From an uncultured cyanobacterium (GTDB lineage Bacteria > Cyanobacteriota > Cyanobacteriia > Cyanobacteriales > Nostocaceae): a stretch of 64,000 bases of DNA. Of the stretch, positions 7,159 to 8,050 are shown piece by piece (position 1 is the first letter of the stretch; the number at the start of each line of letters is the position of its first letter). The DNA is taken from positions 2,784,001-2,848,000 of the forward strand of contig OY970166.1 in the NCBI GenBank assembly GCA_963706595.1, in the 5' to 3' direction. Below the pieces are notes generated by a model. That model saw only the letters and a program-made list of their open reading frames with translations. It was not told the DNA's origin and ran no database searches. Made by a program: the position numbers and the translations under genes.

Positions 7159-7641
7159 TCAAAACTCTGCCTTTCCATCTTCAACAGGCGAACAGACACA
7201 CTTTTCTTCATCTAAAGCAGCTGGCAAAATTAATTCCCAAGCCTCACGATATTGTGTAGAACGAGGTTGGCGCTGTCGTTTGTTCGTCTCAACTAGGTGG
7301 ATTTCACTACCATAATCTATAAATACATTTACTGGAAAAATATAGAATAAGTCGAGTTTTTCTATATATACCAGTGCAAAATCAAAATCAGATTGCTGAT
7401 ATGCTGCTCGAATCATGATCCGCCGATTCGTTTTAGTGCGGCGGTTATCTACAACATAATTGCCAGAAGATTCATCAAACCAAGCGGACTTGACTTGAAT
7501 TTTAACTAGATTTCCTTCTACATCAAAGACTAAATCGTAGGGAAGCCGATCTCCCACAGGTTTCAAAACTCCCCAACCACGCTTGAGGGCATGAAAAATA
7601 GCAGCCTGTTCTGCTATATCTCCTTTGAGCTTTGTGTCCAT
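7159..7641 (-). CDS. Group I intron-associated PD-(D/E)XK homing endonuclease, I-Ssp6803I-like, free-standing
   Basis: Probable ATG at 7641 gives MDTKLKGDIAEQAAIFHALKRGWGVLKPVGDRLPYDLVFDVEG..KIQVKS..NYVVDNRRTKTNRR..YREAW, which closely resembles the recalled I-Ssp6803I sequence. E...D...QxK catalytic residues are intact. Lies next to the intron-containing tRNA-fMet. Confidence 0.9.
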   Translation of the reverse strand: MDTKLKGDIAEQAAIFHALKRGWGVLKPVGDRLPYDLVFDVEGNLVKIQVKSAWFDESSGNYVVDNRRTKTNRRIMIRAAYQQSDFDFALVYIEKLDLFYIFPVNVFIDYGSEIHLVETNKRQRQPRSTQYREAWELILPAALDEEKCVCSPVEDGKAEF

Positions 7642-7664
7642 TTGCTCATAGCGGATATCAGCAT

Positions 7665-7704
7665 AAAACAAAACCCTGAAAACTCTAAGGTTAACAGGGT
7701 CTTG
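7665..7704 (-). terminator. Putative intrinsic terminator after tRNA-fMet
   Basis: Minus strand CAAGACCCTG...CAGGGTTTTG stem followed by TTTT. Confidence 0.6.
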
Positions 7705-7718
7705 CTTTGTCTTTCATT

Positions 7719-8050
7719 TGGTGGCGGGAAGTGGATTTGAACCACTGACCTTCGGGTTATGCCTACCAACTACAGTTTTCACTGCCCGGATATTCCGGTT
7801 TGTGGTCTGGACTGTCCCTTCGCCCTCGTCTATCATTTCTGATTCCGTTAGGGTGCCTGCCTTCCAGTCTCTACACCTTCTCCATTTCTGGAGCTTGGTT
7901 CGGGATTACCGCGCTAGTGGCTTCCCCGAGTTTGACAGGTAATCATACGCAAGTTTCTTCGCGTACCGCCCACTGCAAGACTAACTAATAAGCGCTTAGT
8001 TGAATCTTACGAATTGAGCCCGACGAGCTACCAGACTGCTCTATCCCGCG
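7719..8050 (-). tRNA. trnfM: tRNA-fMet (CAT), split by a group I intron; exons 8050-8017 and 7761-7719
   Basis: Joined exons read CGCGGGATAGAGCAGTCTGGTAGCTCGTCGGGCT|CATAACCCGAAGGTCAGTGGTTCAAATCCACTTCCCGCCACCA (77 nt). C1:C72 is unpaired and the anticodon stem has GGG/CCC (initiator hallmarks); CCA is encoded. Confidence 0.96.
7762..8016 (-). ncRNA. Group I self-splicing intron (255 nt, no internal ORF) between U33 and C34 of tRNA-fMet
   Basis: 5' exon ends in U and intron ends in G. Core elements: P AAACTCGGGGAA, Q AATCCCGAACC, R GTGTAGAGACTGG, S AAGGGACAGTCC; P7 GACTG/CAGTC; P1 GCU|CA pairs with UGGGC. Confidence 0.93.

Follow-up and report, generated by a model that had tools for sequence, protein, structure and literature searches.

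We describe a tRNA-fMet gene interrupted by a group I intron that lacks an open reading frame (ORF), with an intact gene for an I-Ssp6803I homologue standing free just behind it, in a 64,000-nt stretch of cyanobacterial DNA (the window). In our judgement, this locus is probably a two-part descendant of a classic mobile tRNA-fMet intron with trans, or collaborative, homing. We show the homology, anatomy and synteny of the locus, its direction of change, the selection on its protein and its co-occurrence with the split tRNA gene across genomes; from these we infer the enzymatic activity and its target, the splicing and the homing step. The features, in the order in which the minus strand reads through them, are as follows.

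8099..9052, minus strand: asparaginase II family gene, the upstream neighbour, syntenic with the tRNA gene in relatives
8069..8098, minus strand: sigma-70-like promoter (TTGACA, 18 nt, TATACT), putative, ~19 nt upstream of the tRNA 5' end
8050-8017, minus strand: tRNA-fMet exon 1, 34 nt, positions 1-33, ending ..GGGCT
8016-7762, minus strand: ORF-less group I intron, 255 nt, last base G, inserted after U33
7761-7719, minus strand: tRNA-fMet exon 2, starting CATAACCC, from the CAU anticodon to the encoded CCA
7665..7708, minus strand: terminator-like hairpin and U-run between the tRNA and the nuclease gene
7642..7664, minus strand: short leader with the motif ..TATGCTGAT.., which by eye looks conserved upstream of the nuclease gene
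7641-7159, minus strand: nuclease ORF, ATG start, 160 aa, intact, I-Ssp6803I homologue
7228..7641, minus strand: nuclease core, residues 1-138, PDDEXK_5/I-Ssp6803I homologue
7183..7251, minus strand: intron-fossil stretch of the nuclease gene, aligning with the intron from the 3' strand of its 5' hairpin through the following hairpin into the beginning of the core
7159..7227, minus strand: C-terminal tail, residues 139-160 plus stop, near-neutral evolution
5675..7117, minus strand: DUF697 protein gene, the downstream neighbour, starting 41 nt past the nuclease stop

An earlier note on this DNA had placed a 255-nt intron after U33 of tRNA-fMet, and both the exon coordinates and ARAGORN, with introns allowed, bear this out: the program reports a tRNA-Met(cat) whose 255-nt intron sits at position 35, and in default mode finds no tRNA at this locus. 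Bacterial initiator tRNAs are recognised by the anticodon CAU, by a run of three G-C pairs in the anticodon stem and by bases 1 and 72 that do not pair. The joined exons (..TCGGGCT CAT AACCCGA..) carry the anticodon and the three consecutive G-C pairs, with exon 1 supplying the 5' half of that stem, and C1 faces C72, leaving 1:72 unpaired. The putative tRNA promoter agrees with the sigma-70 consensus at 11 of 12 positions, which is a consensus match only. The complete genome is a single contig of 5.57 Mb, in which the split gene is the sole initiator tRNA gene and intron-less initiator junctions number zero. Because this sole gene carries the intron, the intron must splice, and it is predicted to be self-splicing.

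The group I covariance model RF00028 matches 7999-7785 over its full length (model positions 1-253; E 3e-10) with 48.1 bits, which is below its gathering score of 50 and thus short of the curated threshold. A consensus structure built from 31 sequences has 65 pairs, 31 of them with compensatory changes on both sides, supporting the class given to the intron in the earlier note. That the intron has no ORF also stands, in that none of at least 40 aa lies wholly within it on the tRNA strand. It is homologous from end to end to the ORF-bearing introns of Synechocystis-type tRNA-fMet genes. At the window locus, and at each of the 78 related loci found with a split tRNA, the last exon base is U and the last intron base is G, giving a common arrangement of ..GGGCT, intron ending in G, and CATAACCC.

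Metatranscriptome assemblies contain one contig of 2087 nt (X1) that bridges 7406-8130 at ~99% identity, and two shorter ones (334 nt, and 316 nt with zero differences) that cover the intron and exon 2. These contigs place close relatives in RNA libraries, which is not proof of a transcript, its ends or its level. A joint in X1 that skips exactly 255 nt was considered as splicing and rejected, since one side has 28 letters, likeness is 90-95% and the flanks are foreign; it most likely represents an intron-less tRNA gene of another organism.

The nuclease ORF begins 77 nt past the tRNA 3' end and so lies outside the intron; its position on the same strand was correctly described before, with a spacing of about 78 nt past the CCA that we revise to 77. 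It encodes an intact PD-(D/E)XK protein, as had been proposed, and alignment identifies a close homologue of I-Ssp6803I: the PDDEXK_5 profile (PF11645) matches over positions 1-137 of 138 with E 4.5e-55 and 185.9 bits against a cut-off of 26.1, and chain A of PDB 2OST aligns without gaps over residues 2-142 (E 5.4e-68). It is the only such nuclease gene in the complete genome. Among 77 homologues, 36 residues are invariant, and the window protein keeps all of them, including E11, D36, Q49 and K51, which we take to be the catalytic residues of the restriction fold. The exon junction is identical from -12 to +15 to that of a Synechocystis-type locus with the nuclease inside the intron (L063). 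The junction letters given in the earlier note agree with the sequence. Because of the homology to I-Ssp6803I together with the identical junction, the window nuclease is predicted to share its target and to cleave intron-less tRNA-fMet genes.

Related loci fall into two architectures. Among 80 loci collected through the nuclease, so that counts are not frequencies, the gene stands behind the tRNA in 46, almost all of them from cyanobacteria and most with the same neighbouring genes, and inside the intron, in the classic form, in 33 from many phyla; the insertion point is always identical in both. Several families share the gene order asparaginase, tRNA, nuclease, DUF697. The arrangement is far commoner and older than a one-off locus, and is inherited across many filamentous cyanobacteria. 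A Cytophagales genome has reached the same layout independently, and its 3' breakpoint is different. The nuclease tree (140 columns, 77 rows; 41 of 74 inner branches unresolved) indicates at least two origins of the layout and gives no direction, and a single cyanobacterial clade of free-standing genes is compatible with the data (not rejected, p-AU 0.84). Among phages, the search for close relatives of the nuclease found none, its 60 records all lying below 60% identity.

The classic form is exemplified by Synechocystis PCC 6803, whose tRNA-fMet intron is tabulated at 655 nt with a 150-codon ORF (PMC1995217). The window locus shares with it the protein family, the host gene, the insertion after U33, end-to-end intron homology and an identical exon junction, hence presumably the target. 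It differs in having its nuclease gene beyond the tRNA, at a distance of 77 nt, and not within the intron, in that the intron is 255 nt long and has no ORF, and in the 22-residue tail of the protein.

This tail reveals the direction of change. In the free-standing gene, the final ~30 codons repeat helices of the intron core in decayed form, and the 22-residue protein tail is a fossil of that core. A profile of 47 ORF-less introns matches the 3' ends of free-standing genes in 20 of 47 cases at E<0.01 (best 2.2e-9), and the reverse profile, made from free-standing genes, matches ORF-less introns in 8 of 20 independent loci. In 32 of 47 free-standing genes the alignment continues into the core, past the point where intron-borne genes usually stop; the window gene aligns in this way to profile positions 1-69 (E 4.7e-6). 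The tails of free-standing genes (..SPVxFGEA..) resemble the read-through tails of intron-borne genes. Because those last codons copy intron core helices, the gene left an intron and is not awaiting entry into one; of the two states between which the earlier note had left the choice open, before invasion or after exit, the locus is in the second.

The opposite order, in which the nuclease stood free before any entry into an intron, is the pathway proposed for two phage systems in the literature covered by a review (PMC3984707), and the nuclease tree is too poorly resolved to give direction by itself. We nevertheless consider this order highly improbable here. The ribozyme helices of which free-standing genes hold a decayed, in-frame copy are working parts of the intron; this fossil tail evolves neutrally; the hairpin loop of the ORF-less intron still resembles the end of the ORF; and a simple recombination event between the duplicated core segments would not be expected to produce the intron-borne form.

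An impression by eye that a remnant of exon 1 or of the intron 5' end precedes the free-standing gene found no support: a profile combining exon 1 with the 5' part of the intron, built on 31 intron-borne loci, gave no match at E<=100 in 47 spacers. A search for further intron fossil downstream of the gene gave two weak second matches only (E 1 and 9.9). Five relatives from the same family that lack both intron and nuclease keep the asparaginase gene beside the tRNA and have different downstream genes, so that they gave no readable insertion boundaries.

Between tRNA and nuclease gene, the hairpin at 7665..7708 folds at -27.1 kcal/mol (z -5.2; none of 200 shuffles folds equally well), and a comparable hairpin occupies this position in most related loci. 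We found no canonical promoter for the nuclease gene. By eye, a motif like TATGCTGAT is also seen upstream of the DUF697 gene in some nuclease-less relatives. The terminator-like hairpin and the absent canonical promoter weigh against the homing reading, and expression of the nuclease is putative.

These features would suit a nuclease that is an inert relic of a past invasion, inactive, unexpressed and merely unbroken so far in this genome; broken copies are common in relatives, and the metatranscriptome contigs give no clear transcript evidence for the gene. The pattern of selection speaks against such a relic. The nuclease core has a dN/dS of 0.07-0.10, compared with 0.80 for the fossil tail of the same gene (69 pairs), and its value of ~0.07 lies beside 0.06 for the asparaginase neighbour (366 of 435 pairs usable). 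The core is under strong purifying selection and the tail drifts. An ORF of at least 142 aa is kept in 43 of the 46 free-standing loci, and the window protein retains every invariant residue. We therefore regard the inert relic as very unlikely.

Synonymous divergence of the nuclease tracks that of the neighbour (Spearman 0.57, median ratio 0.97, 192 pairs), with dS above ~1 being near saturation, and no gradient of synonymous divergence was found across the upstream flank. This divergence in step with the host flank, together with genus-level congruence, points to long vertical descent. Vertical descent should let the nuclease decay under the classic cycle, so the purifying selection is not fully explained by homing alone.

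One way to account for it is domestication, in which the nuclease is kept for a benefit to the host or by self-enforced retention: as an addiction pair with the nuclease as poison and the intron as antidote, as a splicing helper, or as a restriction-like barrier to incoming DNA that carries an intron-less initiator tRNA gene. Selection on the core as strong as on a housekeeping neighbour, sustained up to saturation of synonymous divergence, fits this explanation, as do the in-step divergence and conserved synteny and the independent same layout, with its different 3' breakpoint, in Cytophagales. Potential targets of a barrier exist, with tRNA-Met-like genes in 425 of 50,697 phage records, including one cyanophage. 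However, 3 of the 46 free-standing loci are broken, and genomes of one genus in the window's family show that the gene is dispensable.

We scored a 251-genome sample of the order for intron, nuclease and intact junction. Each of the 11 intact nucleases occurs with an intron-split tRNA-fMet, in a genome without an intact target; the case that would have told against the earlier proposal, a nuclease beside an intact intron-less tRNA-fMet, occurred with no intact nuclease, an outcome in favour of that proposal. A strong intron match was found in 39 genomes, with zero intact junctions among them, and the three genomes that combine an intron-less tRNA with nuclease sequence hold only broken copies. 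The nuclease is missing from 25 of 40 intron-match genomes, some of them whole genera, and two of these 25 keep small nuclease remnants. The intron thus persists without the nuclease, so guarding is not needed for its retention, and a maturase role is not required. Within one genus of the window's family, the nuclease is intact in one genome (G166), frameshifted in another (G094), garbled with the intron lost in a third (G071) and present only as a fragment in a fourth (G132). The states form a series that starts with an intron and its intact nuclease, passes through an intron whose nuclease is broken, a solitary intron and a broken nuclease left after loss of the intron, and finishes at the empty site. 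With all stages of decay found in a single genus, domestication seems to us unlikely.

A more specific proposal would treat the pair as akin to a restriction-modification or poison-antidote system, with the self-splicing intron in the role of the methylase and as sole protection; we hold this to be rather doubtful. Just as tentative is its corollary, that selection keeps the nuclease because it destroys any DNA with an uninterrupted initiator tRNA gene, whether this comes in as an allele, a plasmid or a phage or arises when a chromosome copy loses its intron. If true, this would explain why a 'selfish' nuclease that is passed on vertically stays under strong purifying selection, and why the layout evolved independently in Cytophagales.

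Collaborative homing by a two-part element remains our preferred reading, and would have arisen as follows. The original element probably carried an I-Ssp6803I-type gene in the terminal loop of the intron's 5' hairpin, with the 3' end of the gene reaching into the core of the ribozyme. In some ancestral cyanobacterium, the gene would have been copied, along with ~85-120 nt of intron core, to a site behind the tRNA and before the DUF697 gene, and the intron itself would have lost its ORF. The resulting short, self-splicing intron would split the nuclease's 23-bp target in the sole initiator tRNA gene, which would make the host immune. Acting in trans, the nuclease may cut any intron-less tRNA-fMet allele. 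With the occupied locus as template for repair, the intron would be transferred along with the nuclease gene, to which it is tightly linked, and a chromosome copy from which the intron had been lost would be re-converted in the same way.

Comparable pairs are known from phages. The review cited above (PMC3984707) describes collaborative homing for the psbA intron of cyanophage S-PM2 with F-CphI and for a second phage system, and reports nuclease-outside-intron pairs only from these two. The window has the same layout, a free-standing nuclease gene beside a gene with an ORF-less intron at the presumed target. Unlike the phage pairs, it is chromosomal and cellular, uses a PD-(D/E)XK nuclease and a tRNA-gene target, and is old and vertically inherited; its nuclease gene came out of an intron and now stands free, whereas the course proposed for the phage systems runs the other way. 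In phage T4, mobE promotes trans homing of the defunct I-TevIII intron (PMC2790892), and there too the nuclease is encoded outside an intron that is not self-mobile. That system is in a phage and uses an unrelated HNH enzyme, its intron still contains a dead nuclease gene and its mobility was reportedly measured, whereas mobility of the window pair is predicted from its genes. Our literature search found no paper describing an ORF-less tRNA-fMet intron with a free-standing nuclease behind the tRNA.

The series of states in relatives also bears on how such elements age. Goddard and Burt (1999) reportedly proposed cyclical invasion, decay and loss of homing endonuclease genes, and the relatives show the predicted states. 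Unlike in the simple cycle, intact copies here combine long vertical descent with strong purifying selection after fixation.

The usual view is that mobile group I introns originate through invasion of an ORF-less intron by a free-standing nuclease gene. Here the direction is opposite to the phage proposals: the nuclease gene left the intron, taking a piece of the ribozyme along. The two-part layout is now found in a bacterial chromosome, in a sole initiator tRNA gene, and in dozens of cyanobacterial species. Since Nostocales strains are genetically tractable, the predictions made here are directly testable. Taken together, these loci provide a natural series for the separation of intron and nuclease, with the nuclease inside, outside or broken, the intron alone, and the site empty, which opens the questions of long selection on a nuclease after fixation and of the intron as an immunity element.

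All parts of the tRNA-fMet locus in the window lie on the minus strand.

Parts of the tRNA-fMet locus (window coordinates)
8098-8069, minus: sigma-70-like promoter, TTGACA-18-TATACT, 11/12 consensus positions
8050-8017, minus: tRNA-fMet exon 1, ending ..GGGCT (sequence; ARAGORN with introns allowed)
8016-7762, minus: intron, 255 nt, last base G (Rfam group I model; ARAGORN with introns allowed)
7761-7719, minus: tRNA-fMet exon 2, from CATAACCC to the encoded CCA (sequence; ARAGORN with introns allowed)
7708-7665, minus: strong terminator-like hairpin with a terminal U-run (-27.1 kcal/mol, z -5.2)
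7641-7159, minus: nuclease ORF, 160 codons (Pfam PDDEXK_5 and 2OST matches)

With introns allowed, ARAGORN called a tRNA-Met(cat) with a 255-nt intron; in default mode it did not detect the window's split gene. In the joined exons, the anticodon stem has three G-C pairs and position 1:72 is unpaired, both marks of a bacterial initiator tRNA. The Rfam group I model matched the intron over its full length (48.1 bits, E 3e-10, 2 bits below the curated threshold), while the nuclease matched Pfam PDDEXK_5 (E 4.5e-55) and, without gaps over residues 2-142, 2OST, the solved structure of I-Ssp6803I (E 5.4e-68). The tRNA's upstream neighbour is an asparaginase II gene, and a DUF697 gene starts 41 nt past the nuclease stop codon. 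The genome is a single contig of 5.57 Mb in which the nuclease gene occurs once and an uninterrupted initiator junction (the joined exons without an intron) is absent; with one mismatch, the junction motif occurs at two sites, neither of which is a tRNA. Locus anatomy and genome content thus bear out in every detail the earlier note's observation of an ORF-less intron in tRNA-fMet with a free-standing nuclease behind it.

We scanned one genome per species for relatives of the nuclease and kept the best 80 of 162 stretches. In 78 of these 80, ARAGORN (introns allowed) found the tRNA-fMet interrupted at an identical position (..GGGCT / intron / CATAACCC), and none of the 80 contains an uninterrupted initiator junction. 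As the loci were collected via the nuclease, the counts of the two architectures are not frequencies: 46 of the 80 share the window's layout, with an ORF-less intron of 237-311 nt and the nuclease gene behind the tRNA, and 32 have a Synechocystis-like layout, whose intron of 602-680 nt holds the nuclease gene, beginning 17-25 nt past the 5' splice site. Among these best 80, the free-standing layout is cyanobacterial, with a Cytophagales locus as the sole exception, and spans Nostocales, Chroococcidiopsis, Microseira, Floridaenema and others; the intron-borne layout occurs in Synechocystis, Snowella and MAGs bearing the labels of a dozen other phyla. One locus (L065) is also of the intron-borne kind, but a contig end cuts it. 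In another (L077, Cytophagales, 2080-2920), all that is left of a tRNA in front of the open 139-aa nuclease gene is its last ~17 nt; the same terminator hairpin precedes the gene, and unrelated sequence lies upstream of the tRNA remnant. This locus is a relocated or truncated copy.

Many intron-borne loci from other phyla (L041, L042, L044, L053, L056, L058, L060, L064, L067 and L070) carry a second, intron-less tRNA-Met(cat) gene ~35-120 nt past the split tRNA; because the initiator junction motif is absent from all of these extra genes, they probably encode elongator tRNA-Met or tRNA-Ile(CAU). Insertions separate tRNA and nuclease gene in L037 (419-2500), where 137-aa and 462-aa ORFs look like an IS200/IS605 tnpA/tnpB pair, and in L006 (1696-2500), where two small ORFs lie on the opposite strand; long spacers (496-1149 nt) also occur in L010, L028 and L040. 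Two loci from MAGs labelled 'Acetobacteraceae' (L019) and 'Leptolyngbyaceae' (L013) have Nostocales-type flanking genes and nucleases that nest among those of Nostoc/Anabaena, and are probably mis-binned contigs.

Five short introns and five long ones, aligned together, are homologous end to end, and RNAalifold applied to 31 aligned short introns gave 65 pairs, 31 of them with compensatory changes. In the long introns, the ORF occupies the terminal loop of the 5' hairpin (columns 7-18 / 32-42 of the short-intron alignment); its last ~20-45 codons cross this hairpin's 3' strand and then the next hairpin, and read-through variants extend into the first core helices.

Free-standing nucleases end in ..YREAWELIL..K(E)xCVxSPVxFGEAxF and read-through intron-borne nucleases in ..YRDAWxLILQWAAxxETxVRxPVKFGEA.., where PVKFGEA is a translated segment of the ribozyme core. 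A profile of 47 ORF-less introns matched the 3' end of the free-standing genes at 20 of 47 loci (E<0.01, best 2.2e-9), with profile positions ~11-96 aligned to nt ~388-475 from the ATG; it had no match in the nuclease genes of the window, L001 and L002. A second profile, built from 31 intron-borne loci between the YR codon and the intron end, aligned to the window's gene at positions 1-69 (E 4.7e-6), and for 32 of the 47 free-standing genes the alignment extended to at least position 69 (119 at most); intron-borne genes usually stop near position 60, so these alignments run beyond that stop. A reverse profile, made from free-standing genes, matched ORF-less introns in 8 of 20 independent loci (E down to 2.4e-8), through its positions ~388-475. 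In the intron this ribozyme segment is functional, whereas at the gene's end it is in decay, which indicates that the gene once lay inside an intron. The earlier note had left undecided whether the layout came before invasion of the intron or after exit from it; judged from the three profile searches and the resemblance of the tails, the direction of change is settled, the nuclease gene having left an intron. Upstream of the free-standing genes, none of 47 spacers yielded a remnant of exon 1 or the intron's 5' end at E<=100.

The Cytophagales locus L073 is laid out as in cyanobacteria, but its 3' breakpoint differs, falling directly after the AW codons, and its nuclease groups with Bacteroidota intron-borne genes in a poorly resolved tree; exit therefore occurred at least twice. 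A single clade for the 43 cyanobacterial free-standing genes was not rejected (p-AU 0.84), and the tree constrained to it was 19.7 log units better than a quick free search.

Most free-standing loci, across several families, have in common the gene order asparaginase-tRNA-nuclease-DUF697. For 30 loci whose nuclease is intact and whose asparaginase gene has no gaps (366 of the 435 pairs were usable), median dN/dS was 0.070 for nuclease residues 1-138, the core, versus 0.061 for the asparaginase gene, and median dS, near saturation above about 1, was 1.06 versus 1.19. Between the window and its nearest relatives, dS for nuclease and asparaginase gene was 0.227/0.155, 0.186/0.201 and 0.654/0.503. 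Across 192 pairs with every dS < 1.5, related pairs not being independent, the two dS values correlated (Spearman 0.57, median ratio 0.97). Between its tRNA-proximal and tRNA-distal halves, the asparaginase gene showed no difference in these 192 pairs (dS 0.799 versus 0.796), a comparison that would miss very long co-conversion tracts. The last 22 codons of the free-standing gene had a dN/dS of 0.80 (13 loci, 69 pairs), and 36 residues, E11, D36, Q49 and K51 among them, are invariant in 77 homologues. The core is thus constrained like a housekeeping protein, its divergence has kept pace with that of the host locus, and the tail, a fossil of the intron, drifts.

We then took an even sample of 251 genomes from the GTDB order of the window and searched this one set for nuclease, intron and junction. 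The nuclease protein query matched 18 genomes, the intron DNA query 40 and the uninterrupted junction query 207; neither intron nor junction was matched in five. None of the 39 genomes with a strong intron match had an uninterrupted junction, and one (G053) had a weak intron-like match plus an intact junction. Eleven of the 18 nuclease matches are full-length and open, all beside an intron (8 free-standing, 3 intron-borne), and another (G036) is a paralogue with 37% identity on a different contig. The remaining six are damaged: three show a stop codon (G231), a frameshift (G094) or a match lacking residues 1-22 (G072), and three lie in genomes that have an uninterrupted tRNA-fMet (G071, G132, G077). 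In G071, a nuclease-like frame begins 78 nt behind the intron-less tRNA with residues ~10-65, the catalytic half, replaced; G132 and G077 hold fragments only. Four species of one genus of the window's family have, respectively, an intact nuclease, a frameshifted one, a garbled one with the intron lost, and a fragment only. The earlier note had asked whether nucleases sit beside intact intron-less targets; in this sample, only wrecks were found there.

No nuclease was found in 25 of the 40 genomes with an intron match, and all 20 loci inspected from these 25 have a tRNA-fMet split by a 242-312-nt intron; in many, the distance from the tRNA to the DUF697 gene behind it is 150-310 nt. The intron thus persists long, in whole genera, without the nuclease. 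One such locus (L097) retains the first 18 nuclease codons 86 nt past the tRNA, and another (L094) has, by eye, ~20 nt resembling the start of the nuclease gene; from these remnants, at least some intron-only loci appear to be decayed forms of the split layout. In two tRNA-fMet-DUF697 spacers (L106 and L107, 468-584 nt), tandem repeats of roughly 70-100 nt resemble small cyanobacterial repeat elements. Outside close relatives, the introns nearest in sequence to the window's (84-85% identity) sit in other families (G243, G135, G148, G213), in genomes with no nuclease, and are nearer than those of some same-family genomes (79-84%); either transfer of the intron or slow change may lie behind this. 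G232 has two separate intron matches (G232:C4:523374-523531 and 1136048-1136209, only the first collected as L110) and no uninterrupted junction, and possibly has two intron-bearing initiator tRNA genes.

In Synechocystis, the I-Ssp6803I target is a pseudo-palindromic 23-bp sequence and the enzyme a tetramer, according to the available text of PMC3384342. The window's intron splits the corresponding region, its junction letters are identical to the Synechocystis-type junction, and the uninterrupted-junction search found no other target in the window's genome. If the protein is an active enzyme with I-Ssp6803I-like specificity, it would cut uninterrupted tRNA-fMet genes. Because the nuclease gene starts ~120 bp behind the intron's 3' end, repair from an occupied locus would copy both together, a process that would be called trans or collaborative homing, and a chromosome copy that lost the intron would be re-converted by the same route.

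A terminator-like hairpin precedes the window's nuclease gene, and no canonical promoter was found for it. The motif ..TTTATGCTG.. lies after this hairpin, at 7642-7664, and many loci have it in front of their nuclease gene; in the nuclease-less L101 and L103, a similar motif precedes the DUF697 start codon by ~30 nt. It may be the promoter or leader of the DUF697 gene, and its sharing with nuclease-less loci hints at a placement of the nuclease gene within that leader.

Long vertical descent under strong purifying selection is not predicted by a simple invade-decay-lose cycle after fixation, and the many intron-only lineages indicate that the nuclease is unnecessary for keeping the intron. 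Opportunities for homing may keep arising through gene flow from related species without the intron (roughly 80%). Alternatively, the nuclease may be beneficial: it could act through addiction, keep out foreign DNA that carries an initiator tRNA gene, or assist splicing. In phages, tRNA-Met-like genes occur in 425 of 50,697 records, one cyanophage included, and no close relative of the nuclease was found. Frequent decay in relatives opposes an indispensable host role.

Close homologues of I-Ssp6803I are generally cyanobacterial (PMC3384342, available text). The Synechocystis tRNA-fMet intron, as given in the accessible part of PMC1995217, is 655 nt long with a 150-aa ORF inside, whereas the window's is 255 nt and ORF-less, with its nuclease gene outside. 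The free-standing layout is unmentioned in the available portions of PMC5733544, PMC6293099 and PMC3943268, and a search of the open full-text literature, with subscription papers outside its reach, turned up no account of an I-Ssp6803I homologue standing free next to a tRNA-fMet gene. The accessible sections of PMC3984707 discuss a proposal on how mobile introns originated and describe collaborative homing for two phage systems only; in contrast to those, the window's candidate pair is chromosomal. The earlier note's reading as a split mobile intron system gains support from the homology of protein and intron and from co-occurrence in the 251 genomes. Collectively, the sequence data support a chromosomal, ancient, two-part candidate homing system that formed when the nuclease gene left its intron.
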